Program-made: the position numbers and the translations under genes
The notes under the pieces: model-generated
The model's input: only the letters and a program-made list of their open reading frames with translations
Databases searched by the model: none
Told to the model about the DNA's origin: nothing
Origin: Eledone cirrhosa
Lineage: Eukaryota
Direction of reading: 5' to 3'
Length of the DNA stretch: 64,000 nucleotides
Assembly: GCA_964016885.1 (NCBI GenBank)
Contig: OZ024764.1
Coordinates: 9,672,001-9,736,000, forward strand
In this document: one piece after another, positions 7,510 to 64,000 of the stretch
How the letters are laid out: each line of letters opens with the position of its first letter
Position numbering within the stretch: the first letter of the stretch is position 1

Positions 7510-8810
7510 CTAAATTGAGATATCACGACTCTGATACTACAGACATGTGGTTAGAATGTCTCAAGAAAGAATCTCTGAATTGAGAGATCACAGCTCTGAT
7601 ACTACAGACATGTGGTTAGAATGTCTGAGGAAAGAATCTCTGAATTGAGAGATCACAGCTCTGATACTACAGACATGTGGTTAGAATGTCTCAAGAAAGA
7701 ATCTCTGAATTGAGAGATCACAGCTCTGATACTACAGACATATGGTTAGAATGTCTCAAGAAAGAATCTCTGAATTGAGATATCACGGCTCTGATACTAC
7801 AGACATGTGGTTAGAATATCTCAGGAAAGAATCTCTGGATTGAGAGATCACAGCTCTGATACTACAGACATGTGGTTAGAATGTCTCAGGAAAGAATCTC
7901 TGAATTGAGACATCACAGCTCTGATACTACAGACATGTGGTTAGAATGTCTCAGGTAAGAATCTCTGAATTGAGAGATCACAGTTCTGATACTACAGACA
8001 TGTGGTTAGAATGTCTCAAGAAAGAATCTCTGGATTGAGAGATCACAGCTCTGATACTACAGACATGTGGTTAGAATGTCTCAGGAAAGAATCTCTGAAT
8101 TGAGAGATCACAGCTCTGATACTACAGACATGTGGTTAGAATGTCTCAGGAAAGAATCTCTGGATTGAGAGATCACAGCTCTGATACTACAGACATATGG
8201 TTAGAATGTCTCAAGAAAGAATCTCTGAATTGAGATATCACGGCTCTGATACTACAGACATGTGGTTAGAATGTCTCAAGAAAGTATCTCTGAATTGAGA
8301 GATCACAGCTCTGATACTACAGACATGTGGTTAGAATGTCTCAAGAAAGAATCTCCGAATTGAGAGATCACGGCTCTGATACTACAGACATGTGGTTAGA
8401 ATATCTCAGGAAAGAATCTCTGGATTGAGAGATCACAGCTCTGATACTACAGACATGTGGTTAGAATGTCTCAGGAAAGAATCTCTGAATTGAGAGATCA
8501 CAGCTCTGATACTACAGACATGTGGTTAGAATGTCTCAGGAAAGAATCTCTGGATTGAGAGATCACAGCTCTGATACTACAGACATGTGGTTATAATGTC
8601 TCAGGAAAGAATCTCTGGATTGAGAGATCACAGCTCTGATACTACAGACATCTGGTTAGAATGTCTCAGGTAAGAATCTCTGAATTGAGAGATCACAATT
8701 CTGATACTACAGACATGTGGTTAGAATGTCTCAGAAAAGAATCTCTGGATTGAGAGATCACAGTTCTGATACTACAGACATGTGGTTAGAATGTCTCAGG
8801 AAAGAATCTC
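7510..8810 (+). repeat. 65-bp tandem array, about 20 copies, derived from RTE LINE sequence
   Basis: Unit AATTGAGAGATCACAGCTCTGATACTACAGACATGTGGTTAGAATGTCTCAAGAAAGAATCTCTG. Confidence 0.95.
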
Positions 8811-10866
8811 TTACAAGGACCTTAGTCTTTGTCATGTTGACTTTGAAACCCTTTCTTTCTAGTCCCTGCTTCCAAGTTTGGAATTTCTTCTCTAGTTCTA
8901 CCATAGATTCAGCTATAAGTGCGAGGTCATCAGCATACAGGAGTTCCCATGGGTATCCGGTCTTAAACTCCTCCGTTATTGCCTGCAGGACTATGATGAA
9001 CAGGAGAGGGCTAAGAACAGAGCCCTGGTGGACCCCAACCTGTACGCTAAATTCCTCGCTATACTCATTGCTAATCCTAACTTTGCTGACTGCTCCCCTA
9101 TACATGGCTTGTACAGCTTTCACAAGCCATTCATCTACTCCTAATTTTCTAAGAGCCCACCAGATTACAGCACGTGGAACTCTGTCAAAGGCTTTCTCGA
9201 AATCGACGAATGCCAGGTAGAGTGGTTTACTTTTAGCTAGGTACTTTTCCTGTAACTGCCTCACAAGGAAGAGGGCATCAGTGGTGCCTCTTCCTGGTAC
9301 AAACCCAAATTTCATCTCATCTAGTTTCACCCGGTCCCTAATCAACTGTGCTATAAGTCTTTCTGTTACTTTCTCAGCACTTGTGAGGGCAAGCTCACCT
9401 TTATCATTCCGGATACACTTCTCTCCAATGACATCACAATTCTCTCTGACACACTGCCTCGCAATCTTAAACACCTCCTGTTTCTGGTCCTCACGTTGCA
9501 AAACATGCTTGAATTTTCTATCCTCTGCTTCCTTCCTAACTAAGTATACTTGCGCCTAGCTTCCCTCTTGGTCTCTATGTAATGTACCCTGCTCCCCCCC
9601 GTTCTTCCATTCTTTCCATGCTTGTCTCTTGGCCTTAACTGCCTCATCTACCTTATTGTTCCACCACCAAGTCACTCTCCTCCTGCTTGTGGTCTTACTC
9701 CAGCCACAGACCTCATCCGTCGCCTCTAGTAAGTTATTTTTTAGGAACTCCCAGTGCTCTTCTACATTGAATGTCACTATCTGTTCTTCTTTACTGTCGT
9801 AGGCATTGAGTAAAATATCTTTAAATCTGTTACTGGCTGAGGGGTCTTTCAGCTTCCAGATCTTTCTTCTCCAGGTTGGCCTCTGTTTCCAGGTTCGTCT
9901 AGTTCTGACTGTGAGGTCGCTGACAACTAAGCTATGTTGGGAGGTACATTCCTCACTAGGGAAGGCTTTTGTGTTTACAACCGTCCATCTGTCACGTCCT
10001 CTGATGAGGATAAAATCTATCTGACTAGAATGCTCCCCTGATCTATAGGTGATCAGGTGGTTGTCGGGTTTTTTGAAGTTTGTGTTACATATCGACAGGT
10101 CATTGGCGTCGCAGAATTCTAGAAGTCTGAATCCTTCTTCATTTCTTGTGCCAACCCCATGGCCTCCATGGACTCTATTGAAGCTGTCACAGTGTTTACC
10201 TACGTGTCCGTGAAAATCTCCTGCGATGATTAAGAAGTCATTGTCGTTTGATAGAGCAGTAGTGTGCATTAGGGACTCGTAAAATCTATCCTTAAGTTTG
10301 TCTGGCAACCCCGATTGGGGTGCGTAAGCTGATATTATTGTGGTAATTGTTTTATTCAGGACTAGTCTGAGTTTAATGATTCTTGCATTTACCCTGTACA
10401 CTGAGATTACTTTATCTACCCACATGGCTTAGTGGTTAGAGCATTGGCCTTGCAATCGAAAGGTTGTGAGTTCAATTCTCAGACCGGGTGATGTGTTGTT
10501 TCCTTGAGCAAGACACTTTATTTCACATTGCTCCAGTTTACTCAGCTGTAGAAATGAGATGATAGGGACTGGGGTTCCTATCATTCCACTGCAAAGTGGT
10601 CGTGGAGGTGCCACGGCAAAAAAGCACCCAGCACTCACTGTAAATGAGGTTGGTGTTAGGAAGGGCATCCAGCTGTAGAAATCAAGCCAGAATCGGTTCC
10701 CGTCCCACCCTTGCAAGCAGGGAAAAAGCAGACGTAAAATGAAATGATGATGATGATGATGAATGACCCACTTGTCAGCTAGTAGTATACCTACACCACC
10801 CATCCCATCGTCATTTCCCACCCAGAAAAATTTGTAGCACCGACTTTTTCCTACAAGGACTCTAGC
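8811..10866 (-). mobile_element. RTE-clade LINE internal fragment (APE endonuclease + reverse transcriptase), frameshifted and internally deleted
   Basis: EN motifs GVGILL, SAYAPQ, IAGDFHGHVG, SSQIDFIL (ORF 9556-10425); RT motifs FVDFEKAFD, GVHQGSVLSP, LYADD (ORF 8758-9501). Confidence 0.92.
10421..10765 (+). mobile_element. tRNA-derived SINE family B inserted in the LINE endonuclease region
   Basis: A box TGGCTTAGTGG, B box GAGTTCAATTC, (GAT)n tail; duplication ACCCAC at 10418-10423 and 10766-10771 splits LINE peptide ADKWV/DKVIS. Confidence 0.88.
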
Positions 10867-14273: not shown

Positions 14274-16065
14274 CTATTAAATAGAACAAAAATAAATATA
14301 ATATATATATATATATATAGCTTAGAAATACTTACACCCACATAGACAGATGTGTATATATATATATGTATGTATGTATGTATATATGTCATCATCATCA
14401 TTTTACGTCCACTTTTCCCTGCTTGCAAGGGTAGGACGGGTCTTATTCAGCACAGCATCTCTCCACTTGTCACGGTCCTTTGTCATCTCCCCCGTGAGCT
14501 TCAGCGATCTGAGGTCAGCTCTCACCACCTCCGCCCATGTTTTTCGTGGGGTCTACCTCTACTGCGTCTTCCTTCAACTGGAATTTCTTGGCACTTCTTT
14601 ACCCATCAGTCATCTTCCATGCGTATCACATGTCCATACCATCTCAGTCTTCTCTCCCACACACCACAACCTATCCCTCTTATACACAGTTTCTCTCTCA
14701 ACACATCACATGTCCATACCATCTCAGTCTTCTCTCCCGCACACTACAACTTATCCCTCTTATACACAGTTTCTCTCTCAACACATCACATGTCCATACC
14801 ATCTCAGTCTTCTCTCCCGCACACCACAACTTATCCCTCTTATACACAGCTTCTCTTTCAACACATCACATGTCCATACCATCTCAGTCTTCTCTCCCGC
14901 ACACCACAACTTATCCCTCTTATACCCAGTTTCTCTCTCAACACATCACATGTCCATACCATCTCAGTCTTCCCTCCCACACACTACAACTTATCCCTCT
15001 TATACACAATTTCTCTCTCAACACATCACATGTCCATACCATCTCAGTCTTCTCTCCCACACACCACAACTTATCCCTCTTATACACAGTTTCTCTCTCA
15101 ACACACCACATGTCCATACCATCTCAGTCTTCCCTCCCGCACACTACAACTTATCCCTCTTATACACAGTTTCTCTCTCAACACATCACATGTCCATACC
15201 ATCTCACTCTTCTCTCCCTCATACCACAACTTATCCCTCTTATACCCAGTTTCTCTCTCAACACATCACATGTCCATACCATCTCAGTCTTCTCTCCCGC
15301 ACACTACATCCTATCCCTCTTATACACAGTTTCTCTCTCAACTCGCCTATGCTTGGTCATTCACACACATTGACATTGCACATCCAACGGAGCATGCTTG
15401 CTTCATTTCTCTCCAGCCGTCGCATATCCTCCACAACTGCTGCCCATGTCACACTACCATGCAGCATCGCGCATCTCACACAGGCATCATATAACCGGCC
15501 TTTCGTACGCAGGGAGACGGGTTAGACGGGAATTGTCCCACTTGAGGCAAGATTGGTCGGGTGACTTTGTCTTGCTCATATAGGACTATATATGATTGTG
15601 TATGTATATAAATATGATACAGATATGTATGTGCCAGTGAGTATAAATATATATATATACAGTACAGATGTGTATGTGTGTGTATAAATATATATATATG
15701 ATATATCATCATCATCATCATCATCATCACCGTTTTACGTCCGTTCTTCCACGCTAGCATGGGTTAGACGGGTTGTCCTGTTGTGGGCAGTGTCTGGTCG
15801 GCTGACCATGCCTTGCTCATACAGGAACTGATTTGGCTTGATTTCTACAGCTGGATGCCCTTCCTAACACCAACCTCATTTACAGTGAGTGCTGGGTGCT
15901 TTTTCGTGGCGCCTCCACGTCCACTTTACAGTGTGGGCTGGGTGCTTTTTTGTCGTGGCACCTCCACGACCACCTTGCAGTGGGGGGTGTGGGGGCATAT
16001 TGTCTATATGCTTCAGCTTGTACCCATGGGAGGTCGGGTACCCTGTATTACTGCGTGACGCCAGG

Positions 16066-19100: not shown

Positions 19101-21128
19101 AATGACCCTGACCACCAAGGCAAGTGCCCTCTCCCAGTTTTCTACCTTTAATTTACAGATATATGCTCAGAGTAGGCCCATTCACTCGGGCCATACTTGC
19201 CTCTCTCACCCATCTTTCAACAAAATGCTGGGAAGAGAGCACCTCCCTCTCTACCCTGATTTTCCTTTTCAAATGAAATTTGAAAAAGTCAATCAGGGCA
19301 TCACCGAAGAGGTAAGTGCTCGTCTTCAGCCCTTTCAAACGTGTCCACCATACTATCTCTTTCACCATGGCCACCAGGCAGATAAAAACTGCCTGCCCTT
19401 CCCGGCTAAAGGAGGAGGGCGGGGCAATCCTCACGATGGACTCAGCTGATAGTCGGATCCGTTCTACACGCGACAGCAGGTGTTCGACATAAACCCACAA
19501 GTCAGCAATGCTCGGACACTGGACGAGTGCGTGCAGGACGGTTTCGTCGCCCTGCGCACATCTCGGACATGCCCGGCTGACGGCACCTCCATGCCTGTAG
19601 AGTTTATCCCGAACTGGCAAAGCTGCTCGGTAGCACTGCCAGGCCAGAGATTTCTGGAAGTTGTCCATAGGCCCTGGCCCGAAAGTTCTTCCGAAGAGAT
19701 TGGCTAGTTGATTTTCGTCGACGCCTAGAGTTTCCCCAAGTATGTCGTCGCTCTTCCCCTCCACTAATCCTCTATAGAACGCCGAGGTGGAGTTTCCACC
19801 GATCACATTGCCCGATTGGTCGAGGGCTGTGAGCGCCTGAAGACATTCCAGTCTCCAGGCGCTCCCTCTCGGTCTTCGCTTGACCCAGGACTGCAGCTCC
19901 GTCAAGGAAACGAGCTGGGGAAAAACGCGTCTAGCAAACGGCGACCACACCTGATCACCGTCGAGGAAGAGGTGGAGATGTCGTAGCCTGAGCGCGTGCC
20001 TGCGCATCATCAGCCACGGCATGCCCAGCCCTCCACGTAGCGGGTGTTGACAACAGATGGACCGCCTGACCATCGGAGCACGTCCCTTCCACAAAAAGCG
20101 AAAGAGCAAACGCTCCAGCGCAGTCAGGCGAGGCTTAGGACAAGGTACGACGGTCAGGCGGTAGCAGATGACAGACGCGATGTACGCGTTAGCCACCTCC
20201 GCTCGACCTTTCAGGGATAGCTTCCTCTCCACCCATTTCTGGGTGAGAGAAGCCACCCTGCTCGTCACCTCGTCCCAGTTTTTGTCCGTCTGGAGGTCCA
20301 GACCGAACCAGACCCCTAACCGATTCTGCTAATAATAATAATAATTGTTTCTACTTTTGACACAAGGGGCCAGAAATTACCCAGTGTATTACTGGTACTT
20401 TATTTTGGCACAAGGGGCCAACAATTACCCCAGTGCATTACTGGTACTTTATTTTATCGACCCCGTAAGGATGAAAGGCAAAGTTAACCTCGGCTGGATT
20501 TGAACTCAGACCGTAAAGGGCCATAACTCTATACTGCAAAGCTTGGCGTCTGACTTTCTACCGATTCTGCTAATAATAATAATAATTGTTTCTACTTTTG
20601 GCACAAGGGGCCAGCAATTACCCCAGTGCATTACTGGTACTTTATTTTGGCACAAGGGGCCAGCAATTACCCCAGTGCATTACTGGTACTTTATTTTGGC
20701 ACAAGGGGCCAGCAATTACCCCAGTGCATTACTGGTACTTTATTTTGGCACAAGGGGCCAGCAATTACCCCAGTGCATTACTGGTACTTTATTTTGGCAC
20801 AAGGGGCCAGCAATTACCCCAGTGTATTACTGGTACTTTATTTTATCGACCCCGTAAGGATGAAAGGCAAAGTTAACCTCGGCGGGATTCGAACTCAGAA
20901 TAATAATAATAATAATAATGTCACTCACCAGCTCCTTTCTTGCCCCTTTATCCATATAATAGGCGTACGGGTAGGTGTACTGCAAAGTGTACCGACACTG
21001 TAACAACAACAACAACAACAGTATTAGAGTATGTAACTATCCAGAGAAGAGATTCATCATCATCATCATCATCATTTAAGGTTCATCTTCCACGCTAGCA
21101 TGGGTTGGACAGGTTTGTCCCATTTAGA

Positions 21129-21646: not shown

Positions 21647-24600
21647 ATATATCTACATGTGTATATATATGTATATATGTATGTGTCTATATGTACATGT
21701 GTGTGTACACATATATATATATAAATGTGTGTGTGCGTACATATGTATATATGTACATATGTATATACAAGTATGTATGTACAGATATATATGTATGTTG
21801 TTTTTCAGCGTAACTAGTAACATATAACCCCGAGACACTTGTCAACAGTTTCAGGTAGTTATAAAGGTGTTAACAAGATACCTTCTTCAACAGAGCTGCA
21901 GCATCAAGCAGATATTGCCAATCTATCCAAGTTCCAGAGTTGTTCATCACTTTATCTTGAATTCTACTTTTGATGCTGGTTAGGGTCTGCTCTTCCAATT
22001 TCAAGCTTTTCGCGTGGTTATCCCACTGTGGCAGAGACATGAGAGAACGGACACAGATATATAGATACCATATAAATATAGATTTAGCAAGCATCGCATT
22101 TCGGCGGGTAGAAAAGGCGAAACGAAACGCAAAAATCAGAAATAATTGTTTCTACTTTAGGCACAAGGCCAGCAATTACCCAGTACATTACTGGTACTTT
22201 ATTTTATCGACCCTGTAAGGATGAAAGGCAAAGTTAACCTCGGCGGGATTTGAACTCAGAATGTAAAGGGACGTAACTATGCTAGAAAGCATGGCGTCCC
22301 ACCCTCTACCGATACTGCCAATTCACAGAAATAATTGTTTCTACTTTTGGCACAAGGTCAGGAATGATCCCAGTGTATTACTGGTACTTTATTTCATCGA
22401 CCCCCGTAAGGATGAAAGGCAAAGTTAACCTCGGCAGGATTTGAACTCAGACCATAAAGGGCCGTAACTCTTTGCTGCAAAGCAAGGCGTCCGACTCTCT
22501 ACTGATTCAGCCTTAACCGATTCTGCTAATTCACAGAAATAATGATGGCAAGCGCTCCATAGTTAAAAAACCAGAGCTAAACAATATGTTAAGAGGCCAT
22601 ACAAAACTGAAATAGTGGTCAAGAAAGCATCAACCACCTAAGCCAAAAATCAAATCAAGCTAAACAGGTCAAAACAAAATAAATGATAAAAAAAAATGAT
22701 GAAAAAAAAAAAATCAATGATAAAAAAGGCCATATCACGCTGTAAACACTGGTTCTCGTCCGATCACCAAAGTTAAGCAACGTCAAGCCTAGTTAGTACT
22801 TAGATGGGTGACCGCTTGGGAACCCTAGGTGCCGTAAGCATTTACTGATATATACCATATATATAACCAGAGTTTATATGGTTCGTTGATTATTCAACGA
22901 ATACAACTTTACAATAGATTAGAAGCATTCGACAGAAAGTTTTCTGGAGTATCTATAATGTTATTCAAAATATTAATAAATGAAAAATATTCTCATAATC
23001 AAAATATATATTTTATTATACATATTTCAAAGGTACTATGGTGTTTAAGTACGTTTTCATCAGACAAAATATGAGAGATTGAATATGCAACATACCGCTA
23101 CGGTTTTGATTATTCAATTCCAATAGTGGTAGTATTGGAATTGAATAATCAAAACCATAATGGTGTGTCGTATATCCAATCTCTCGTATATTTTGTCTGA
23201 TGAAAACATACTTAATCACCGTACTTATACACTGTACTTAAAAAGGTTTCAAAAGAAATGTGCCATTGTGCCAGGCCCAAGGCAGGCCGGCAGGCCAAAG
23301 TGCAAATCTCACCGTTACATATTGTTTGTGGCGTTCCTTCGGAGTTCAAGCAGCAAGAGAGAGATTTCTCAAATCAAAGTGGGAATTTTTCCCTCAGGGC
23401 GCGTAGAGATACATTCTCTTCTACTGGCACTGATTGGCTGAGCTGAGCCAAATCACGCACAGAGAATGTATGTAAGCCCGCGGAATGTAGGTCACTACAC
23501 TCATATATTTTGTCTGATGAAAACGTACTGAAACACCATTGTATAAAACACCATTTGTATAAAATCAATATATATATATACAGAGAGACTATATATATAT
23601 ATATACACACACACTGCATGTGTGCGTATATATATATATATATATATAAAGAAAACAGGAAACAGAAAAAAGGGGTAGATAGGAAAGTTGTTGCTGTATA
23701 AGAGATGTTTAAGAGTTAAAATATATCTGAGAACAAGGAAAACCAACTGACCCTTTCAAAGTAGAAGAGGTATTTCTTAAGGGCTTCCCTTGCCTGTGCA
23801 TGGGCAGATTCATTAGCGATATTAGGGTTTTCTTTATAGCGACTGCATTCATAATATTCACTACCATGGGTTTTCCAATCTGTAACAGAAAAATGGGATT
23901 AACTTGGAACATAATTAAATTTAGGGGTCACATTTATGTACGTTTTTGGGGGGTCGTAATGATAGGGACCCTTACAAGGTTGTCTGCGAAAATACAATAG
24001 TATATATAGAGTAATGTAAATGTTATGTGAGGTAAAGCCTTTACTGTGAAAATACAATAGTATATATAGAGTAATGTAAATGTAATGTGAGATATTATGT
24101 GAGGTAAAGCCTTTACTGTGACAATACAATAGTATATATAGAGTAATGTAAATGTTATGTGAGATATTATGTGAGGTAAAGCCTTTACTGTGAAAATACA
24201 ATAGTATATATAGAGTAATGTAAATGTTATGTGAGATATTATGTGTGGTAAAGCCTTTACTGTGCCAATACAATAGTATATATAGAGTAATGTAAATGTT
24301 ATGTGAGATATTATGTGAGGTAAAGCCTTTACTGTGACAATACAATAGTATATATAGAGTAATGTAAATGTTATGTGAGATATTATGTGAGGTAAAGCCT
24401 TTACTGTGAAAATACAATAGTATATATAGAGTAATGTAAATGTTATGTGAGATATTATGTGAGGTAAAGCCTTTACTGTGAAAATACAATAGTATATATA
24501 GAGTAATGTAAATGCTATGTGAGATATTATGTGAGGTAAAGCCTTTACTGTGAAAATACAATAGTATATATAGAGTAATGTAAATGTTATGTGAGATATT

Positions 24601-27600
24601 ATGTGAGGTAAAGCCTTTACTGTGAAAATACAATAGTATATATAGAGTAATGTAAATGTTATGTGAGATATTATGTGAGGTAAAGCCTTTACTGTGAAAA
24701 TACAATAGTATATATAGAGTAATGTAAATGTTATGTGAGATATTATGTGAGGTAAAGCCTTTACTGTGAAAATACAATAGTATATATAGAGTAATGTAAA
24801 TATTATGTGAGATATTATGTGAGGTAAAGCCTTTACTGTGAAAATACAATAGTATATATAGAGTAATGTAAATATTAAAGGTTTAATGATAGGGACCCCA
24901 GTCCTATCATGTTGTCACAGCTCACACCTATGTAGGTTTAGCTGGACTCCGACAAGGTTGTATCTCATAAGAGGTTTCTTGGGTGTTTTAATGATAGGGG
25001 ACCCCAGTCCTATCATGTTATTACTGCTCACACCTGGGGAGGGGGGAAAGTCGATTAAATTGACGCCAGTGCATTACTGGTACTTTATTTTATCGATCCC
25101 GTAAGGATGAAAGGCACGATTGACCTCGGTGGGAATTGAATTCAGAACCTAAAAGGACCTAACTCTATGTCCGATGCTCTACCAATTTAGCTAATCCACT
25201 GCCCTAATAAGAATAATGATAATAATAATATTGAACTTACCTCCTAAACACATCCAGCAAAAATCATGCTTGCATCGTGAACATTGCTGTAGATAAAGAA
25301 TTAGATATATATATATATATATATATGTGGTTTTTTTTGGTTGTAACTTCTCTGTTTTTTAGCCTAGGAAAATATTTATATATATGCCTACGTATATAAT
25401 TACATGCATATATGTATTTATTTTCTTTTATTAATTGAGTTCTTTACACGAGGAATTAATATTGGTTTTGAAATAACTAATTAACCCGCGTGTGTTTTAA
25501 ATTTTACTCTTAATAATTCGGCCGGAGAATTATATTCCCATTTGCCCTTTATAGCATAACTTTCTGCATTTACTGCGGTTATGAGAAGCGGTTCTTATTC
25601 GGGTACAACTTCTGATTTAGCCTAAGAAAGTATCTAGATGCGTGTGTAATTTATACAAGCATATATTTATTTTTTTTATTTTCAATTGAGTTCTTAAACA
25701 CGTTGGATTGATAATGTTTTCAAAAAAACTAATTAACCCGCGTGTATATTATTTTTTTTCCTCATTTCGTGGGTTGTCTCCCCTTCCCGCTTCATGTCGC
25801 TATGATACTTCCTCAGTCAAAAACTGCTGGAATTTCAAATTTGGCGGTCATTCGAGGTGAGAGAGAGCATCTTTACGGATATGATTTTTGACAGCGGTAA
25901 GAAATTGTTTTCTTATATCAATGTTTAATGGGCTTCCACTGATGATTTATAAGTGCCCACCTAAATATATTCTTACATGAATATATATTAGGCTTCTACA
26001 TAAACTGGAAACATTCTCCTAAATTTGTAGAAAACTTATAATGAAACAATTGTTTGGAAAGAGAGATATACTTTAACTTTAATTATATCTCATAAAATAA
26101 TACAACTGGTTTTTCCACATTATTCATATTGTTAGCACCCCAAACACTTAAATTGGGTTTATATTTTAATATAACCTAATGTTTGTTGAGTGAGATGGTT
26201 ACCAGTCAGAGTTTAGCTTTAAACTATCTCTGTTATTGTATTAATTATATATATATATATATATATATAAAAAGCAAAAGAGAAAGGAAAAAACAGTCCA
26301 CGCTGTAATGTGGCTGTGTAGGTAACAAGGTAAAAAGCTCCCAGTTCCACACTGTAAATGTGGTTGGTGTTAGGCAGGGCATCAAACTGTAGAAAACTTG
26401 CCATATACTCCCATATGAGCAAGACACGGTCACCCGACCAACCTTGCCTCAAGTGGGACAACTCCCGTCTAACCCATGCTAGCGTGGAAGATAGACGTTA
26501 AACTATGATGATGATGATGATGATGATACATGTCAGTATTTAAACCCAGGTAAGTGATAATGAGTGACGTAGTGTTCATTTATCAAATAATGTTAGTTAA
26601 GACAGGATTAAATCACCATAATTTTTTACTGCATTATATATATTTACAGTGATGGAAGCCTTGGAGTGGGGAGACCCAAAAAGACCTGGGATGAGGTGAT
26701 AAAAGTCGACCTTACCCAAGTGCACCTCTCAAAGGCGATAATGCAGGACTGTGACCTGTGGCGTCACGCAGTAATACAGTAGACCCGACCCCCCCCCCAC
26801 AAGTACAAGCCAAAGCTGAAGCATATAGACAATATGCCCCCACCCCCTCCCACTGCAAAGTGGTTGTGGAGGTGCCACGACAAAAAAGCACCCAGCCCAC
26901 ACTGTAAAGTGGTCGTGGCGGTGCCACGGCAAAAAAGCACCCAGCACTCACTGTAAATGAGGTTGGTGTTAGGAAGAGCATCCAGCTGTAGAAATCAAGC
27001 CAGAATTCCCGGATGAGCAAGACAAAGTCAGCCGACTTGACACTACTCACAACAGGACAACCCGTCTAACCCATGCTAGCGTGGAATTCTATTATAACGA
27101 AATTCACGGGGTATTATAAAAATTTGTTGGAACGAATCATTCTTTATAACGAGATCGACGTAACACATCAAGCATGAGGCTAGGGATTTTAAAAAATTTC
27201 GTTATAACGAAATTTTACCTGTATACACACACGCACACATCATCATCATCATACATCTGCTTTTCCCTGCTTGCAAGGGTGGCACGGGTCTTATTCAGCA
27301 CAGCACCTCTCCACTTGTCACGGTCCTTCGTCATCTCCTGTGAGCTTCATCGATCTGAGGTCAGCTCTCACCACCTCCGCCCATGATTTTCGTGGTCTTC
27401 CTCTACTGCATCTTCCTTCCACTGGGATTTCTTGGCACTTCTTCACCCAGCGGTCATCTTCCATGCGCATCACATGTCCATACCAACGCAGTCTTGTCTC
27501 CCACACACTACAGTTTATCCCTCTTATACACAGTTTCTCTCTCAACACATCACATGTCCATACCAACGCAGTCTTCTCTCCCACACACTACAGTTTATCC

Positions 27601-28619
27601 CTCTTATACACAGTTTCTCTCTCAACACATCACATGTCCATACCATCGCAGTCTTCTCTCCCACACACTACAGTTTATCCCTCTTATACACAGTTTCTCT
27701 CTCAACACATCACATGTCCATACCAACGCAGTCTTCTCTCCCACACACTACAGTTTATCCCTCTTATACAGTTTCTCTCTCAGCTCATCCATGCTTGGTT
27801 GTTAACGCACATTCACATTGCACATATATATGTATGTGTGTAAACCCTAATACGTACCATATGATTACATCCACCATTTTTCTCTATACAAACATGACAT
27901 CTTGGACACTGAAAAGAAAAGAAAAGAAAATATAGAAAAACTGAAATATATAAAAATAATAATCTTTTTTTTTTATTATTATTATTATTTAGATACTTTG
28001 AATTGTTCTCCTACAAAAGACTGCCTTGCTGGTCACTGTATATATATACCCAGGAAGAAAGTACTGTCTGGTTACGGTCCTTGTTGAGACTGGACAGGAC
28101 TGTAGAAAGTTCCGGTAAGCATAATTGTTTCTACTTTTGGCACAAGGCCAGCAATTACCCCAGTGCATTACTGGTACTTCATTTTATCGACCCCGTAAGG
28201 ATGAAAGGCAAAGTTAACCTCGACGGGATTTGAACTCAGAATGGCAAGGGCCGTAACTCTATACGTCAAAGCATGGCAACCGACCCTCTACCGATACTGC
28301 CAATCTACCGTTCCGGTAAATATAATATTTACTGCATAAATTTTTGATAACAACAACAACAATAATAATAATAATAATACTGATAATGGTTTCTTATATA
28401 GTCTTATATCTTTAGTGTATGTGTAAGAGAGAAAGAGAAATACAGAGATAGAGAGATTATATCCTAAACGGACGGTAGTCCGTTTAGTAATATTGTTGTG
28501 GTCGTGTTTTCGTTGGCAATCGTCTGTTTACGACAGTACAGCGCGGCTCTACTTTATTTAACTGAGATAAAACTTATATGAGCATGAACAGTAGATCATT
28601 ACGCATCTTTTGGCTTAAA

Positions 28620-30372: not shown

Positions 30373-32978
30373 ATCTTTGGTGTGTGCTGAAATGTAATTT
30401 GCCGTCTCAGAGTCATCAGCACATTTAGTTAACCACTTCTTGATGGTATTGCAGTCAGTGGGAGCATGGTATTCTATACCACATCTGAAACTGGAGAGAT
30501 AGAGACATGTCTGTATGTATATATATAAAATAATAATAATAATAATAATTGTTTTTACTTTAGGCACAAGGCCAGCAATTGCCCAGTGCATTACTGGTAC
30601 TTTATTTTATCTACCCCGTAAGGATGAAAGGCAAAGTTAACTTCGACAGGATTTGAACTCAGAATGGCAAGGGCCGTAACTCTATGCGTCAAAGCATGGC
30701 GTCCAACCCTCTACCAATACTGCCAATCCACAATAATAATTGTTTCTTCTTTAGGCACAAGGCCAGCAATTACCCAGTGCATTACTGGTACTTAATTTTA
30801 TCGACCCCGTAAGGATGAAAGGCAAAGTCAACCTCAGCGGGATTTGAACTCAGATCGTAAAGGGACGTAACTATGCTGGAAAGCATGTAAGTATGTATGT
30901 ATACGTACATACACATATGTATACAGACGTACAGTAGTATGTATATATATATATATACATACATGCACACATATATATATATGTACGTATGGGTTTACCG
31001 AACATTTATTATAATGCTCGGTTAGTTTGTAAACCCATATGTACATATATATATGTGTGCATGTATGTATATAGAAACATACTACTGTACGTCTGTATAC
31101 ATGTGTATGTACGTATACATACATACTTACATTTAAGTACCAGCCGTACTAAGAGTGAGAAATGAAATTTCATTTCATTCTTTTCCATTTATATAATAAT
31201 AATAATAATGAAATTATTGTGTACAGTGCTCAGGTGCACTACAAGTCGTCAAAGGTGCATGTATAGTACATAGAATAATATACAAATGTCAGGGAAGTGA
31301 ATAGTGTATGAGTCATGATATACATGTGTGTGTGTGTATGGAGGGGGAACATTAGGTGTAGTGTTGGCGAATTTCAGGAAGCATGGAGGTTTTAAAGGAT
31401 GCAGTGTCTCGACAGCTAACAACTGATGCAGGTAGTTTGTTCCATGGAGGTTTTAAAGGATGCTGTGTCTCGACAGCTAACAACTGATGCAGGTAGTTTG
31501 TTCCATGGAGGTTTTAAAGGATGCAGTGTCTCGACAGCTAACAACTGATGCAGGTAGTTTGAAAGGATGCAGTGTCTCGACAGCTAACAACTGATGCTGG
31601 TAGTTTGTTCCATGGAGGTTTTAAAGGATGCAGTGTCTCGACTGCTAACAACTGATGCAGGTAGTTTGTTCCATGGAAGTTTTAAAGGATGCAGTGTCTC
31701 GACAGCTAACAACTGATGCTGGTAGTTTGTTCCATGGAGGTTTTAAAGGATGCAGTGTCTCGACTGCTAACAACTGATGCAGGTAGTTTGTTCCATGGAG
31801 GTTTTAAAGGATGCAGTGTCTCGACAGCTAACAACTGATGCAGGTAGTTTGTTCCATGGAGGTTTTAAAGGATGCAGTGTCTCGACAGCTAACAACTGAT
31901 GCAGGTAGTTTGTTCCATGGAGGTTTTAAAGGATGCAGTGTCTCGACAGCTAACAACTGATGTAGGTAGTTTGTTCCATGGAGGTTTTAAAGGATGCAGT
32001 GTCTCGACTGCTAACAACTGATGCAGGTAGTTTGTTCCATGGAAGTTTTAAAGGATGCAGTGTCTCGACAGCTAACAACTGATGCTGGTAGTTTGTTCCA
32101 TGGAGGTTTTAAAGGATGCAGTGTCTCGACAGCTAACAACTGATGCAGGTAGTTTGTTCCATGGAGGTTTGAAAGGATGCAGTGTCTCGACAGCTAACAA
32201 CTGATGCTGGTAGTTTGTTCCATGGAGGTTTTAAAGGATGCAGTGTCTCGACTGCTAACAACTGATGCAGGTAGTTTGTTCCATGGAAGTTTTAAAGGAT
32301 GCAGTGTCTTGACAGCTAACAACTGATGCTGGTAGTTTGTTCCATGGAGGTTTTAAAGGATGCAGTGTCTCGACTGCTAACAACTGATGCAGGTAGTTTG
32401 TTCCATGGAGGTTTTAAAGGATGCAGTGTCTCGACAGCTAACAACTGATGCAGGTAGTTTGTTCCATGGAGGTTTTAAAGGATGCAGTGTCTCGACAGCT
32501 AACAACTGATGCAGGTAGTTTGTTCCATGGAGGTTTTAAAGGATGCAGTGTCTCGACAGCTAACAACTGATGTAGGTAGTTTGTTCCATGGAGGTTTTAA
32601 AGGATGCAGTGTCTCGACTGCTAACAACTGATGCAGGTAGTTTGTTCCATGGAAGTTTTAAAGGATGCAGTGTCTCGACAGCTAACAACTGATGCTGGTA
32701 GTTTGTTCCATGGAGGTTTTAAAGGATGCAGTGTCTCGACTGCTAACAACTGATGCAGGTAGTTTGTTCCATGGAGGTTTGAAAGGATGCAGTGTCTCGA
32801 CAGCTAACAACTGATGCAGGTAGTTTGTTCCATGAAGGTTTTAAAGGATGCAGTGTCTCGACAGCTAACAACTGATGCAGGGAGTTTGTTCCATGCTTCA
32901 GCAATTCTGACCGTGAAAAAATGTTTCCGAAAGTCATGGGAGCTGTGCTGTTTTCTGACTTTGTAGGTATGCCCACGC

Positions 32979-33017
<39 letters not shown>

Positions 33018-35862
33018 AAATATAAAACAATCAAATTTTAGCTTAATACATTTAATTGCTGATGATCGTTTCTCCCAGACAACTCTCTGGAATCATCGGA
33101 GAATACACAATGTTTAAACAAGTAATTATAATCGTAGTCTTCGGAATATTCATAAAGATATATTTATATTTTGTATTTCAGCTCTGTAAGACATATGATA
33201 ATTTACATTGAGCTTTTTCTCTTACTGGTAATTGGGTAGTGCTTAATACTACCCTTTCATATTTATAATTATATATAACTCATATACAAGCATAAATATT
33301 ATTATTATATATATATATTATTGAGTAAAATGACAGGAGGTTGGACTGGTGAAATTCCTTCAAAGATTTATTACAAACACTATGCACATTTCAATGATCA
33401 GGTTCCATAAGATCCTGGTGACATCATCAGGTGTTTATTGCATAAAAGTTATATAATAAAGGAATAATGGTAAACATAATCCAAGAGGCTTTATATATTT
33501 CGGAAAAGAGTCAGGACCCCAACAGCTGAGCTCCGGCCGTTCTTGTTATTTATATATATATGTCAATGTGCGTGAACGACCAAGCATAGATGAGTTGAGA
33601 GAGAAACTGGGTATAAGAGGGATAAGTTGTGGTGTGCAGGAGAGAAGACTGAGATGGTGTGGACATGTGATGGAGGAGAGGATGACTGCTGGGTGAAGAA
33701 GTGCCAAGAAATCCCAGTAGAAGGAAGACACAATAGTGAAGACCACGAAAAACATGGACGGAGGCGGTGAGAGCAGACCCCAGATCACTGAAGCTCACGG
33801 AGGAGATGACGAAGGACCGTGACAAGTGGAGAGATGCTGTGCTGAATAGGACCCGTCACACCCTTGCAAGCAGGGAAAAGCAGACGTATGATGATGATGA
33901 TATAGCTTATCACTTCTTGATGGTACTAGGAAGTTCGGAGCTTACCAAAAAGAAGTTTTACATTTGGAACAGTCCACTTAAAAAAAAAAGGGGTGGTGGT
34001 ATCTGCAGTGTGAGGGAACTAGAGATAAAATATATTCAAAAGGCAAAAAAAAAAAAACCGAAGTTCGGAGCTTACCAAAAAGAAGTTTTACATTTGGAAC
34101 AGTCCACTTAAAAAAAAAAGGGGTGGTGGTATCTGCAGTGTGAGGGAACTAGAGATAAAATATATTCAAAAGGCAAAAAAAAAAAAACCGAAGTTCGGAG
34201 CTTACCAAAAGGAAGTTTTACATTTGGAACAGTCCACTTAAAAAAAAAAGGGGTGGTGGTATCTGCAGTGTGAGGGAACTAGAGATAAAATATATTCAAA
34301 AGGCAAAAAAAAAAAAAACCGAAGTTCGGAGCTTCCCAAAAAGAAGTTTTACATTTGGAACAGTCCACTTAAAAAAAAAAGGGGTGGTGGTATCTGCAGT
34401 GTGAGGGAACTAGAGATAAAATATATTCAAAAGGCAAAAAAAAAAAAACCGAAGTTCGGAGCTTACCAAAAGGAAGTTTTACATTTGGAACAGTCCACTT
34501 AAAAAAAAAAGGGGTGGTGGTATCTGCACTGTGAGGGAACTAGAGATAAAATATATTCAAAAGGCAAAAAAAAAAAAACCGAAGTTCGGAGCTTACCAAA
34601 AAGAAGTTTTACATTTGGAACAGTCCACTTAAAAAAAAAAGGGGTGGTGGTATCTGCAGTGTGAGGGAACTAGAGATAAAATATATTCAAAAGGCAAAAA
34701 AAAAGAAAACCGAAGTTCGGAGCTTACCAAAAAGAAGTTTTACATTTGGAACAGTCCACTTTCTTGGCTTGGGGTTGTGGTGCTCTGACTATTACCGGAC
34801 AGTTTGGACCAGGACAAAACCGTAATTGAGGATGGGTCTACAAATAGAAAATATAAACATTTATATATATATATATATATATATATACACCCCAACTCAC
34901 TACCCCTACTCCACCCTCCCACTCCCACCAACACCACCCTTTCTCTATCATCATCATCATCATTCGTTGACTACTGTCGAGATGATGGATCTCAACCTCA
35001 TGCCCCAGAATTCCCTGTCCCCCATCGCTGCCCCCAGGTCCTGTCTACTGATTCCCGTATCCCTAGAGATAACTGTTTCTACTTTAGGCACAAGGCCAGC
35101 AATTACCCAGTGCATTACTGGTACTTTATTTTATCGACCCCGTAAGGATGAAAGGCAAAGTCAACCTCGGCGGGATTTGAACTCAGATCGTAAAGGGACG
35201 TAACTATGCTGGAAAGCATGGCGTCCGACCCTCTACCGATACTGCCAATCCACCGCCCTTCCCTCTATCACCGTATCCCTAGAGATAACGTCAGGGAATG
35301 ACAGCTTCCTACTCCTAGTCAGGCTGGAGTCAGGGTTCCAGAGCAAGAGAGCGGATATGATTTCATTGCTGGCACGGTGACAGTCCTCATAACGCCTCTC
35401 CTGAGGATGAGGTAAGAGAATTCTACACGACCCTTCGCACAGTTGTTGAGCAAGTACCCTTACACAACTTTCTTATCATCGCTGGAGACCTCAACGCTCA
35501 ACTTGGCCCGGATGAAGTAAGGTTCACATACAATAGGGTTACTAACAACAGCTCAACAGCTCAAACAACAACTTCATGAAGACCAGAGGCCAGCTTTGGA
35601 GCCTTTCTCTATAAAGTTATGTTGGTACCACAACATCCAGTCCAAACTAATGAGGTCGTGTAGGTGTCACGACAAAAAAAGCTCCCAGTCCACACTGTAA
35701 ATGTGTGGTTGGTGTTAGGAAGGGTATCCAGCCGTAGAAAACCTGCCAGACAGTCCTATACGAGCGAGACACGGTCACCCGACCAATCTTGCCTCAAGTG
35801 GGACAATTCCCGTCTAACCCATGCTAGCGTGGAAGATAGACGTTAAACGATGATGATGATGA

Positions 35863-35898
<36 letters not shown>

Positions 35899-38800
35899 TA
35901 AGGCGGGTAAAATTCCCGAGATCCATGGACGAGTTCTCTCCAGTTGTCTCTGTCCCTCATTATCGCTGCCATGTCCTGCGTCGCCAACAGACCAGTGTCT
36001 GTCCTTAGGGCATCAACATACGTTAACCTTGGTCTTCCTCTTCTATATAATAATTGGAGGAATGCAGGACTGTGTCTTGAATATATTTTTTTCTGAACAC
36101 ATTAAAATAAGTTGGATTACTTTGAATAAATAATTGTTTCTACTTTAGGCACAAGGCCAGCAATTATCCAGTGCATTACTGGTACTTTATTTTACCGACC
36201 CCGTAAGGATGAAAGGCAAAGTGAACCTCGGCGGGATTTGAACTCAGATCGTAAAGGGACGTAACTATGCTGGAAAGCATGGCGTCCGACTCTCTACTGA
36301 TACTGCCAATCCACCGCCCTAATAATAAGTCTGCATGCCGAAACCCGGGAATGAACAGGGGACCTTTAGATCTTCAGTCTAACGCTCTCCCAACTGAGCT
36401 ATTTCGGCTGTACATTACTTTGAATAAATAATGAATGAATATTACATAATTTATCTACTAAATTTCGTAGCTGTTGATTAAACAAATATTTTTATATATA
36501 ATCTATTTTAAGATTCACTTCTTTAAAATTTTCAAATGTCAATACTTCCAGTTAGCGTCCGTTATATCATAATACTTATCACATCACTTATATCAACATT
36601 CATATATTTGTATCGTTATATAAGGTTTATATTTCCGTCACTAATTTTCTCCTTTTTCGTTTTCATTACATTTCACCGTAATGCAGTTTAAATATAATGT
36701 GAAGGCACATGGCTTAGTGGTTAGAGCTTAGTGGCTTGCAATCGAAAGGTTGTGAGTTCAATTCTCAGACCGGGTGATGTGTTGTTTCCTTGAGCAAGAT
36801 ACTTTACTTCACATTGCTCCAGTTTACTCAGCTGTAGAAATGAGATGATAGGGACTGGGGTCCCTATCATTCCACTGCAAAGTGGTTGTGGAGGTGCCAC
36901 GGCAAAAAAGCACCCAGCACTCACTGTAAATGAGGTTGGTGTTAGGAAGGGCATCCAACTGTAGAAATCAAGCCAGAATCAGTTCCCGTATGAGCAAGAC
37001 AAGGTCAGCCGACCAGACACTGCCCACAACAGGACAACCCGTCTAACCCATGCTAGCGTGGAAGAAAGGACGTAGAACGGTGATGATATAATATTGTCTT
37101 TGTTAAATGTATCATGGATTATTTTACTGATTACAGAAGACAGTGTAACACAGTCTCTCTTCAATTTCTGTGCATATTGTCAACTATGATTCTATTTGAC
37201 ATATCATATCTCCATATATTTGCATATAATGGAGGCACATGGCTTAGTGGTTAGAGCATTGGCCTTGCAATCGAAAGGTTGTGAGTTCAATTCTCAGACC
37301 GGGTGATGTGTTGTTTCCTTGAGCAAGACACTTTATTTCACATTGCTCCAGTTTACTCAGCTGTAGAAATGAGATGATAGGGACTGGGGTCCCTATCATT
37401 CCACTGTAAAGTGGTCGTGGAGGTGCCACGGCAAAAAAGCACCCAGCACTCACTGTAAATGAGGTTGGAGTTAGGAAGGGCATCCAGCTGTAGAAATCAA
37501 GCCAGAATCAGTTCCCGTCCCACCCTTGCAAGCAGGGAAAAAGCGGACGTAAAATGAAATGATGATGATGATGATGATGATAATATCAATATCCACACTA
37601 CACATGCTAGCAGGAAACCACACGAAGGGTGGTTTTTTTTCTGCTAGCAACAAATAATTGTTTCTACTTTTGGCACACACACGGCCAGCAATTACCCCAG
37701 TGCATTACTGGTACTTTATTTTATCGACCCCGTAAGGATGAAAGGCAAAGTTAAACTACCATAATTGTTTATTGCATTATATATATTTCTGTGACATTTT
37801 AGCTAGTATGCTCGGACACTTACCTTGACATGGTCCATAAATGTAAGTCTCATGTATCGGTCTCGAATGTCTGGTTGGCTGAGTACCTCACAGATGATAT
37901 TCTCCGGCACAAGGACATTACACTCCGCTGCCATGCACTGGATTCCTGGTGGCGGTGGCGGTGGTGTCGATGGTAGTGGTGGTGGTGGTGGTGGTGGTGG
38001 TGATGGTGGTGGTGGTGGTGGTAGTGGTGAAGAAGAAGACATTATTAGAGACAGAGAGAGAGAGATGGAGTAACAGAGTTGATAGAGGGAAGGAGGGAGG
38101 GAGGGAGAAAGAAGGAAGGAAGGAAGGAAGGAAGGAAGGAAAAAGAAAGAAAGAAATAGAGGAAGGAAAGGAAGAAAAGAAAGTGAGTAAAAAGACAACA
38201 AAAAAGGTGAGCACATACTTGTGGTTACTCCTTGGTAGATTTGTACTTGGAAATATCTATCCCACAATATTATTAGAGACAGAGAGAGAGATGGAGTAAC
38301 AGAGTTGATAGAGGGAAGGAGGGAGGGAGGGAGGGAGAAGGAAGGAAGGAAAAAGAAAGAAAGAAGGAAGGAAGGAAAAAGAAAGAAAGAAAGTGAGTAA
38401 AAAGACAACAAAAAAGGTGAGCACATACTTGTGGTTACTCCTTGGTAGATTTGTACTTGGAAATATCTATCCCACAATATTATTAGAGACAGAGAGAGAG
38501 ATGGAGTAACAGAGTTGATAGAGGGAAGGAGGGAGGGAGAAAGAAGGAAGGAAGGAAAAAGAAAGAAAGGAAGGAAGGAAAAAGAAAGAAGGAAGGAAAA
38601 AGAAAGAAAGAAGGAAGGAAGGAAGGAAAAAGAAAGAAAGAAATAGAGGAAGGAAAGGAAGAAAAGAAAGTGAGTAAAAAGACAACAAAAAAGGTGAGCA
38701 CATACTTGTGGTTACTCCTTGGTAGATTTGTACTTGGAAATATCTATCCCACAATATTATTAGAGACAGAGAGAGAGATGGAGTAACAGAGTTGATAGAG

Positions 38801-41800
38801 GGAAGGAGGGAGGGAGGGGGAAGGAAGGAAAAAGAAAGAAAGAAGGAAGGAAGGAAAAAGAAAGAAAGAAAGTGAGTAAAAAGACAACAAAAAAGGTGAG
38901 CACATACTTGTGGTTACTCCTTGGTAGATTTGTACTTGGAAATATCTATCCCACAATATTATTAGAGACAGAGAGAGAGATGGAGTAACAGAGTTGATAG
39001 AGGGAAGGAGGGAGGGAGGGAGGGAGAAGGAAGGAAGGAAGGAAAAAGAAAGAAAGAAATAGAGGAAGGAAAGGAAGAAAAGAAAGTGAGTAAAAAGACA
39101 ACAAAAAAGGTGAGCACATACTTGTGGTTACTCCTTGGTAGATTTGTACTTGGAAATATCTATCCCACAATATTATTAGAGACAGAGAGAGAGATGGAGT
39201 AACAGAGTTGATAGAGGGAGGGAGGGAGGGAGAAGGAAGGAAGGAAGGAAAAAGAAAGAAAGAAATAGAGGAAGGAAAGGAAGAAAAGAAAGTGAGTAAA
39301 AAGACAACAAAAAAGGTGAGCACATACTTGTGGTTACTCCTTGGTAGATTTGTACTTGGAAATATCTATCCCACAATATTATTAGAGACAGAGAGAGAGA
39401 TGGAGTAACAGAGTTGATAGAGGGAGGGAGGGAGGGAGAAGGAAGGAAGGAAGGAAGGAAGGAAGGAAAAAGAAAGAAAGAAATAGAGGAAGGAAAGGAA
39501 GAAAAGAAAGTGAGTAAAAAGACAACAAAAAAGGTGAGCACATACTTGTGGTTACTCCTTGGTAGATTTGTACTTGGAAATATCTATCCCACAATATTGA
39601 CAGAGAGAGAGATGGAGTAACAGAGTTGATAGAGGGAGGGAGGGAGGGAGAAAGAAGGAAGGAAGGAAAAAGAAAGAAAGAAGGAAGGAAGGAAGGAAAA
39701 AGAAAGAAAGAAATAGAGGAAGGAAAGGAAGAAAAGAAAGTGAGTAAAAAGACAACAAAAAAGGTGAGCACATACTTGTGGTTACTCCTTGGTAGATTTG
39801 TACTTGGAAATATCTATCCCACAATATTATTAGAGACAGAGAGAGAGATGGAGTAACAGAGTTGATAGAGGGAGGGAGGGAGGGAGGGAGGGAGAAGGAA
39901 GGAAGGAAGGAAAAAGAAAGAAAGAAATAGAGGAAGGAAAGGAAGAAAAGAAAGTGAGTAAAAAGACAACAAAAAAGGTGAGCACATACTTGTGGTTACT
40001 CCTTGGTAGATTTGTACTTGGAAATATCTATCCCACAATATTGACAGAGAGAGAGATGGAGTAACAGAGTTGATAGAGGGAGGGAGGGAGGGAGAAAGAA
40101 GGAAGGAAGGAAAAAGAAAGAAAGAAGGAAGGAAGGAAGGAAAAAGAAAGAAAGAAATAGAGGAAGGAAAGGAAGAAAAGAAAGTGAGTAAAAAGACAAC
40201 AAAAAAGGTGAGCACATACTTGTGGTTACTCCTTGGTAGATTTGTACTTGGAAATATCTATCCCACAATATTGACAGAGAGAGAGATGGAGTAACAGAGT
40301 TGATAGAGGGAGGGAGGGAGGGAGAAAGAAGGAAGGAAGGAAAAAGAAAGAAAGAAGGAAGGAAGGAAGGAAAAAGAAAGAAAGAAATAGAGGAAGGAAA
40401 GGAAGAAAAGAAAGTGAGTAAAAAGACAACAAAAAAGGTGAGCACATACTTGTGGTTACTCCTTGGTAGATTTGTATTTGGAAATATCTATCCCACAATA
40501 TTATTAGAGACAGAGAGAGAGATGGAGTAACAGAGTTGATAGAGGGAGGGAGGGAGGGAGGGAGGGAGAAGGAAGGAAGGAAGGAAAAAGAAAGAAAGAA
40601 ATAGAGGAAGGAAAGGAAGAAAAGAAAGTGAGTAAAAAGACAACAAAAAAGGTGAGCACATACTTGTGGTTACTCCTTGGTAGATTTGTACTTGGAAATA
40701 TCTATCCCAGCATTCCTTGCAGAAGAGATGTCCACAGGTGAGACATTCCATCCTGTCTCTGGCATACCAGACGGTACAGACAGTACAGACTAGACTGCTA
40801 GCCCCAGGGTCCTGGAATTAGAGAGGGGGTAGGGGTTAGGTGAGGTGACAAGACAGTACAGACTAGACTGCTAGCCCCAGGGTCCTGGAATTAGAGAGGG
40901 GGTAGGGGTTAGGTGAGGTGACAAGACAGTACAGACTAGACTGCTAGCCCCAGGGTCCTGGAATTAGAGAGGGGGTAGGGGTTAGGTGAGGTGACAAGAC
41001 AGTACAGACTAGACTGCTAGCCCCAGGGTCCTGGAATTAGAGAGGGGGTAGGGGTTAGGTGAGGTGACAAGACAGTACAGACTAGGTTGTTAGCCCCAGG
41101 GTCCTGGAATTAGAGAGGGGGTAGGGGTTAGGTGAGGTGACAAGACAGTACAGACTAGGTTGTTAGCCCCAGGGTCCTGGAATTAGAGAGGGGGTAGGGG
41201 TTAGGTGAGGTGACAAGACAGTACAGACTAGACTGCTAGCCCCAGGGTCCTGGAATTAGAGAGAGGGCAGGAGTTAGGTGAGGTGACAAGACAGTACAGA
41301 CTAGGCTGCTAGCCCCAGGGTCCTGGAATTAGAGAGAGGGGGTAGGGATTAGCTGAGGTCAGAGGTTCTCAAACTTTTGGGGCCACTGCTCCCCTCACGG
41401 CCACATAATACCCTCAGTACCCACCAACCCTATTTCCAGACACAGCAATACAGAAGACCCGACTTCCCACGGGTTTCAAGCTGAAGCTGAAGCATATAGA
41501 CAATATGCCCCCACACCCTCCCACTGCAAAGTGGACGTGTAGGTGCCCCAGAAAAAAAGCACCCAGCCCTCACTGTAAATGAGGTTGGTGTTAGGAAGGG
41601 CATCCAGCTGTAGAAATCAAGCCAGAATCAGTTCCCGTATGATCAAGACAAGGTCAGCTGACTGGACACTGCCCACAACAGGACAACTCGTCTAACCCAT
41701 GCTAGCGTGCAAGAACGGACGTAAAACGGTGATGATGATGATGAAATATATATATATATATATATATTTCATCATCCTCATCACTGTTTTACGTCCTTTC

Positions 41801-52879: not shown

Positions 52880-53827
52880 ATGGAGAGAAATGAAGCAAGC
52901 ATGCTCCGTTAGATGTGCAATGTTAATGTGCGTGAACGACCAAGCATGGATGAGTTGAGAGAGGAACTGTGTATAAGAGGGATAAGTTCTGGTGTGCAGG
53001 AGAGAAGACTGAGATGGTATGGACATGTGATGTGTTGAGAGAGAAACTGTGTATAAGAGGGATAAACTGTAGTGTGTGGGAGAGAAGACTGCGTTGGTAT
53101 GGACATGTGATGTGTTGAGAGAGAAACTGTGTATAAGAGGGATAAGTTCTGGTGTGTGGGAGAGAAGACTGAGATGGTATGGACATGTGATGTGTTGAGA
53201 GAGAAACTGTGTATAAGAGGGATAGGTTGCGGTGTGTGGGAGAGAAGACTGAGATGGTATGGACATGTGATGTGTTGAGAGAGAAACTGTGTATAAGAGG
53301 GATAGGTTGCGGTGTGTGGGAGAGAAGACTGAGATGGTATGGACATGTGATGTGTTGAGAGAGAAACTGTGTATAAGAGGGATAGGTTGCGGTGTGTGGG
53401 AGAGAAGACTGAGATGGTATGGACATGTGATGTGTTGAGAGAGAAACTGTGTATAAGAGGGATAGGTTGTGGTGTGTGGGAGAGAAGACTGAGATGGTAT
53501 GGACATGTGATGTGTTGAGAGAGAAACTGTGTATAAGAGGGATAGGTTGCGGTGTGTGGGAGAGAAGACTGAGATGGTATGGACATGTGATGTGTTGAGA
53601 GAGAAACTGTGTATAAGAGGGATAGGTTGCGGTGTGTGGGAGAGAAGACTGAGATGGTATGGACATGTGATGTGTTGAGAGAGAAACTGTGTATAAGAGG
53701 GATAGGTTGCGGTGTGTGGGAGAGAAGACTGAGATGGTATGGACATGTGATGCACATGGAGGATGACCGCTGGGTAAAGAAGTGCCAAGAAATCCCAGTG
53801 GAAGGAAAACGAAGTAGAGGAAGACCA
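52880..53827 (+). mobile_element. RTE LINE fragment with 80-bp array (about 10 copies)
   Basis: Reverse complement of the unit at 14625-15341; [26 protein letters not shown]. Confidence 0.88.
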
Positions 53828-62047: not shown

Positions 62048-62077
62048 AGTCTTTAATCCAAGTCCTTTAATAATAAT

Positions 62078-63276: not shown

Positions 63277-63690
63277 TAACCCTTTAGCATTCACATTACT
63301 CTATATATACTATTGTATTTTCACAGTAAAGGCTTTACCTCACATAATATCTCACATAACATTTACATTACTCTATATATACTATTGTATTTTCACAGTA
63401 AAGGCTTTACCTCACATAATATCTCACATAACATTTACATTACTCTATATATACTATTGTATTTTCACAGTAAAGGCTTTACCTCACATAATATCTCGCA
63501 TAACATTTACATTACTCTATATATACTATTGTATTTTCACAGTAAAGGTTTTACCTCACATAATATCTCACATAACATTTACATTACTCTATATATACTA
63601 TTGTATTGTCACAGTAAAGGCTTTACCTCCCATAATATCTCACATAACATTTACATTACTCTATATATACTATTGTATTGTCACAGTAAA
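63277..63690 (+). repeat. 72-bp array (5-6 copies) beginning with TTAACCCTTTAGCATT (piggyBac-like terminus)
   Basis: Reverse complement of the 23987-24886 array; TTAA followed by CCCTTT at the left end. Confidence 0.85.
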
Positions 63691-64000
63691 GCATAAGGCA
63701 TTTGTTAACTAGATCAGACACCATGATATGCGGCTAACCCTTTGCCCTATTATATATATATAATACAAGGCTTTTGTCACAGAGGGAGAGTTTACAAGAC
63801 CAGGCATCATGAAAAGGGGCTAACCCCTTGCCCTATAAAAAAAGATTATATATATATATATATATAAGACCCGGGTTTAATCGGGGGGTAACACAGTTAG
63901 TAAGGTACTCAATACATTAGTAGAGTGTAAAAATCAAGTTTAATATAGAAATGGCTTCTACAGGACTAGAACTGTTTCATTCAAAGGAAATCATCAGGAA

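Follow-up and report, generated by a model that had tools for sequence, protein, structure and literature searches.

The window (the whole stretch of 64,000 nt that was analysed) holds one copy of the gene ARIH2 (Ariadne-2) on its minus strand; the features of the gene that matter here are collected in Table 1. A search with exon 5 led to a 483-residue Ariadne protein, with which tblastn then placed 14 coding exons, from 51971 down to 14202; giving all of the model introns AG/GT borders yields an open frame of 483 codons. The model is identical to the Octopus vulgaris protein CAI9744415.1 at 474/483 positions (98.1%) and colinear with it over the exon 6/7 junction; its identity to each of the ten cluster members (10/10) is 90-98%. 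Pfam recognizes the IBR domain on exon 6 (E=4.8e-7), and the full RING1-IBR-RING2-Ariadne set on the homologue P0002. By its protein sequence the gene is that of an octopod. As modelled, ARIH2 is an intact gene when the first exon 6 donor is used. The acceptor of exon 5 (37946-38050, minus strand) has an (ACC)n run instead of a T-rich tract and the lowest score of the gene's 13 (1.2), and about 100 nt upstream lie a branch-like CTAAT and a short pyrimidine run without an intervening AG; a distant branch point is possible at this exon.

Table 1. Features of ARIH2 and of the arrays at its exon edges (window positions)
Feature	Position	Strand	Remarks
ARIH2 (Ariadne-2) coding span, 14 exons, 483 codons	14202..51971	-	without stop or frameshift
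Exon 7, normal splice partner of exon 6	30373..30490	-	intron 6 = 4237 nt
130-bp minisatellite, 6.4 copies	33930..34761	-	unit = last 34 exon nt + 96 intron nt
Exon-end copy 6 (partial last unit), donor GTAAGC	33930..33979	-	16 intron nt
Exon-end copy 5, donor GTAAGC	34076..34109	-	
Exon-end copy 4, donor GTAAGC	34206..34239	-	
Exon-end copy 3, donor lost (GGAAGC)	34337..34370	-	
Exon-end copy 2, donor GTAAGC	34467..34500	-	private candidate acceptor CACAG at 34529, 62-nt exon
Exon-end copy 1, donor GTAAGC	34597..34630	-	candidate acceptors end at 34670 (TAG), 34654 (CAG), 34628 (AAG)
Authentic intron 6 donor GTAAGC	34722..34727	-	
Coding exon 6 (IBR exon), 110 nt	34728..34837	-	ends in phase 2; tblastn 86% to P0002; Pfam IBR
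Exon 4 donor array, 12 units of 202-277 nt	38085..40709	-	46 exon nt each, all GTATGT
Exon 4 (RING1)	40664..40811	-	flanked by its own acceptor and donor arrays
Exon 4 acceptor array, 8 units of 73 nt	40778..41359	-	real acceptor = last

The end of exon 6 is repeated down the intron that follows it. TRF calls an array of period 130 with 6.4 copies, 98% matches and a score of 1618, and reading it copy by copy agrees: past the authentic exon end (34 nt, 34761-34728), another six copies follow on the minus strand, beginning at 34630, 34500, 34370, 34239, 34109 and 33979, the intron part of each unit being 96-97 nt. An earlier, sequence-only reading had described six copies of about 130 bp, each carrying the last 34 exonic nt and GTAAGC, with the GT missing from one of them, and this is what is there: GTAAGC is kept in five of the six extra copies and has become GGAAGC in the copy that ends at 34337. 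The last unit breaks off after 50 nt (34 of exon, 16 of intron). Some finer points of that reading need adjusting. The T run that precedes AAG, put at T9-10, is T10 in all six units. CTGCAG does stand ahead of five copies, but the sixth motif reads GTGCAG (34524), the result of a C>G change that also created the new CACAG at 34529. Pseudo-exons of 31 or about 56 nt had been proposed; the 31-nt version stands, the longer one is 57 nt, and options of 62 and 73 nt are additional, the TAG candidate that would bound the 73-nt exon (34670 in the first unit) being present in 6/6 units. Nothing else in the window matches the 130-bp unit, and the array is therefore, as had been claimed, independent of the arrays at the RING1 exon (exon 4).

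Copied splice signals and the products of their use

How good are the copies as splice sites? They were scored with a matrix made from ARIH2's own 13 introns, which is crude and has a small sample behind it. The intact copied donors are identical to the authentic exon 6 donor, which at 3.5 bits is the weakest of the 13 in ARIH2; its score is matched or bettered by 232 of the 1561 GT sites in 24,220 nt of non-array intron. The best of the candidate acceptors is the private CACAG of copy 2, at 9.7; the AAG, CAG and TAG candidates score 7.0, 5.8 and 4.2, values equalled or exceeded by 8, 9 and 11 of the 13 real acceptors, respectively. The AAG candidate ranks within the top 24 of 1196 decoy AGs; it is preceded by its T10 tract and, 34 nt upstream, by a branch-like CTCAC. 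AAG occurs at 0/13 of the real acceptors of ARIH2. An AG as good as the candidate lies 25-130 nt upstream of 33 (AAG level), 47 (CAG) or 64 (TAG) of the 232 decoy donors; pseudo-exon-like pairs are therefore common in ordinary ARIH2 introns. The notion that RNA structure masks the donors or forms an editing substrate was rejected (z = -1.10, -0.06 and 0.43 for 3/3 stretches). Among proteins of fewer than 265 aa, the sole candidate for a truncated isoform ending at exon 6 is an exon 5 read-through from another species, which is uninformative.

The modelled consequences of using the copies are uniform. Splicing from any of the six downstream donors would place a stop one codon past exon 6, because the retained donor reads TAA. 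The 57-nt pseudo-exon would keep the frame and form a TGA at the junction itself (codon 0 after exon 6); those of 31, 73 and 62 nt would bring stops after 6, 20 and 26 codons past exon 6. All of these lie well upstream of the last junction, with eight exons following exon 6. Since every modelled alternative splice carries a premature stop, inclusion would be poisonous. This "poison if included" property, shown by the models, follows from the sequence and phase of exon 6, and selection is not needed for it. The suggestion that the copies are candidate poison exons is half right: each modelled pseudo-exon does carry a premature stop, but the acceptors are middling and do not surpass the decoys that abound in the introns, and the array looks too recent for a conserved poison exon.

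Tandem arrays at exon edges

Is exon 6 alone in this? The sequence-only reading had pointed to a second exon of the gene with similar architecture, and exon 4 is such an exon, with 11 extra donor copies (12/12 are GTATGT) and 7 extra acceptor copies. Exon 4 thus has 8 acceptors on one side and 12 donors on the other, near-identical within each set (the real donor being the first), and therefore only one of the 96 pairings is the orthologous exon; as a test of splice-site choice it is sharper than the array at the IBR exon. Where the acceptor array of exon 4 stops lies a motif (41360-41385) that seems to resemble the terminal repeat of a DNA transposon.

Arrays of period at least 30 number 27 in the window, of which they make up 27.5% by length, and they take up 31% of the ARIH2 gene; these counts leave out periods below 30, fewer than 2 copies and less than 84% matches, and the exon 4 donor array, called in two overlapping pieces, was merged by hand, which brings the tally for the gene from 16 to 15. 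Three of the 15 straddle a splice site (exon 4 acceptor, exon 4 donor, exon 6 donor), all within 7.5 kb. With every array reduced to a single unit and its position randomised, 0.86-0.96 boundary overlaps are expected against the 3 observed (P(>=3)=0.051-0.063); for the 12 arrays with at least 3 copies, P=0.035-0.046. Ten of the 15 are made from dispersed or simple repeats. Of the five locally born arrays, three lie at a boundary, where random placement within unique DNA would give 1.03 (P=0.046), and taking away the exon 6 array leaves two of four (P=0.14). Counted by base coverage instead, boundaries are under-represented in arrays: 3/26 lie inside them, against 8.0 expected. Because the window was chosen for its exon 6 array, the borderline boundary excess is a lead, no more. 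The claim of a recurrent phenomenon holds as a count (three boundary arrays in one gene), the excess over chance being only borderline in a gene with that much minisatellite. Genes outside ARIH2 for a wider enrichment test were sought among 106 open frames, which gave only a LINE endonuclease/reverse transcriptase and four weak or repeat-driven Pfam matches.

Age and assembly of the intron 6 array

The six full units differ by only 4 substitution events and by T-run length. One substitution is common to copies 2 and 4; another, the only one of the four to fall in a splice signal, removes a GT (not significant). Judged by the 98% identity among its copies, the array is young, reflecting recent amplification or homogenisation, and from the substitution in copies 2 and 4 we infer stepwise growth. 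The partial last unit allows duplication and later deletion, or else an 80-nt insertion between 50-nt direct repeats that was then amplified.

Could the array be a mis-assembled or mis-sized repeat? Near-identical copies invite the thought, and contig depth gives no true copy number. The copies nevertheless carry substitutions of their own, as well as the one common to copies 2 and 4, and the joint from unit to unit is found in contigs of 3/3 sequencing runs (of unknown kind, from one sample and one study) at a word depth of 47-76, which is not a measure of copy number; the sample may be the source of the window, and this support is therefore not independent. On balance, an artefact is scarcely credible. 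The same contigs, aligned to one unit plus exon, cover 17 of 28 bins, contain the unit-to-unit joint only, show neither splice-like joints nor loose ends and leave 34762-34850 bare, a gap that carries no weight; on splicing they are uninformative.

As to where the unit came from, derivation of its intron part from exon 7 was rejected (161/1686 control windows score as well, 56/1686 with a shorter query), and decayed older exon copies in the other ARIH2 introns were sought and none stood above shuffled controls. Just past the array, at 33900-33925 on the minus strand, lies a stretch with a 26-nt alignment to the interior of exon 7, the first 15 nt of it exact. None of the 1686 control windows does as well, but at least 9/60 trials with shuffled exon sets attain that score at some place in the window, and window-wide it is not significant; in inverted orientation, the same stretch also matches the last donor copy at 12/14 positions (fold z=-1.10). 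It is possibly a templated junction filler.

Donor choice and the standing of the copies

Donor-spanning minisatellites are known from human genes. The 37-bp VNTR of F7 intron 7, present in 5-9 copies, has its first unit across the exon-intron boundary, and although its pseudo-donors can function, they stay silent: the intact donor that lies farthest upstream is the only one used (Borensztajn et al. 2006, PMC1557585). The ARIH2 array likewise repeats identical donors down an intron, in a similar number of copies (6.4); its first unit also lies across the boundary and its host frame is intact, and by this architecture it belongs with the F7-type arrays. It differs from F7 in its longer unit of 130 bp, of which 34 nt are exonic (4 in F7) and which leaves room for acceptor-like motifs, and in that silence and polymorphism have been measured for F7, while the ARIH2 array is known from sequence alone. 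The introduction of the same paper (PMC1557585) lists the minisatellites of CBS IVS13 and of intron 2 of the interferon-inducible gene 6-16, where two extra donors are used, and those of LMNB2 (100-bp unit) and PDGF intron 4 (81-bp unit), where only the authentic donor is. All four have the donor-spanning architecture of ARIH2, and the LMNB2 and PDGF units are similar to its own in length; any extra exon 6 donor of ARIH2 would lead to an immediate stop.

Two other classes invite comparison. Internal tandem repeats at exon-intron boundaries have formed new introns in human duplicated genes (De Grassi and Ciccarelli 2009, PMC2812944). Those repeats, like the ARIH2 arrays, could open new splice patterns; they concern segmental-duplication paralogs with transcript-supported introns, in contrast to the one ARIH2 copy of the window, read from its DNA. 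Poison exons, e.g., that of Smndc1, are alternatively spliced, regulated and highly conserved (PMC11357089). Inclusion of an ARIH2 copy would, as with Smndc1, introduce a premature stop with more introns still to come downstream, but the ARIH2 array is young, and it is the predicted stop alone that it has in common with this class. An octopus paper on splice-donor minisatellites was not found in a literature search, and none of the 15 papers listed, out of 373 matches, for ARIH2 with poison exon or NMD makes mention of ARIH2.

We think it probable, reasoning by analogy, that the exon 6 donor unit was amplified by an ordinary tandem process, that the first donor is the one used, and that the copies are silent and roughly neutral intron. 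The 130-bp unit would have been amplified as the gene's other 14 minisatellites were, by slippage or unequal exchange. As in F7, the first donor would be chosen, the exon being defined from its real acceptor (34838). Since a unit that spans the donor leaves the first exon whole, the array would be tolerated for as long as the first donor wins; wholly exonic arrays, by contrast, would be purged. Rare products of mis-splicing would be cleared by nonsense-mediated decay. Silence of the exon 6 donor copies, being an analogy from mammals, is likely; the array itself is most probably a neutral by-product of a genome rich in repeats rather than a regulatory switch.

What if the first donor does not always win? 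The nearest copies might be used at a low and unregulated rate, as an extended exon 6 or as pseudo-exons of 31-73 nt, their products going to nonsense-mediated decay and ARIH2 output being slightly lowered with copy number. The CBS and 6-16 arrays do use their nearest pseudo-donors (PMC1557585), although those of F7 are silent at a distance of only 37 nt, and the exon 6 copies are at least 131 nt away. The authentic donor of exon 6 is weak and faces five identical competitors, with a T10-AAG and a CACAG that may be usable; splicing between adjacent units would require introns of 57-100 nt, however, and the shortest in ARIH2 is 884 nt. In minigenes of human RYR3 and NARS2, whether a pseudo-exon is included can be switched by repeat length (PMC10078293), and the loss of a GT in copy 3, one of the four events and not significant, may be counted for a leak. 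Taken together, we consider such leakage rather unlikely, though it is the alternative to be taken most seriously.

One can go further and think of the array as a functional device, kept for a regulated inclusion that tunes ARIH2 levels, with arrays of this kind enriched at octopod exon edges. All of the modelled products do contain a stop, but these stops arise from the exon's own sequence and phase without selection; three boundary arrays do surround the RING1 and IBR exons of one gene (P about 0.04-0.06), but the window was picked for the feature, and the base-coverage count runs the other way. Copies that are 98% identical, a lost GT and an array that ends in mid-unit also speak against it, and we hold a device of this kind to be very improbable. 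Hardly better are the prospects of a bolder version, in which octopods amplify exon edges above chance and the arrays are copy-number-tuned poison-exon "dials", each added unit sending more ARIH2 message to decay. Were the dials real, they would constitute a fast, heritable route by which poison exons are born from the very exon behind which they sit. As things stand, the intron 6 array is one more splice-donor minisatellite, and the ARIH2 arrays, those of exon 4 above all, offer nature's own test of how a mollusc chooses its first donor. Their importance would grow if inclusion rose in step with copy number, or if a genome-wide enrichment of this kind of array emerged, in which case they would show how poison exons can arise.

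The rest of the window has repeats of several other kinds. One 72-bp minisatellite occurs at 24023-24877 and again, 39 kb away, at 63288-63691 in opposite orientation and with 94-100% identity: a mobile minisatellite. An 80-bp piece of a dispersed repeat is tandemly amplified at 14625-15342, 27468-27793 and 52945-53752, and single near 33594 and 52464. Arrays of 49 bp (20596-20844) and 45 bp (61058-62049) are built from pieces of an abundant short dispersed repeat that is also found at 35069-35259 and 36130-36320. A LINE remnant with endonuclease and reverse transcriptase matches (RVT_1, E=5e-27) occupies 8761-10428 on the minus strand, and a long retroelement-like frame lies at 19156-20328.
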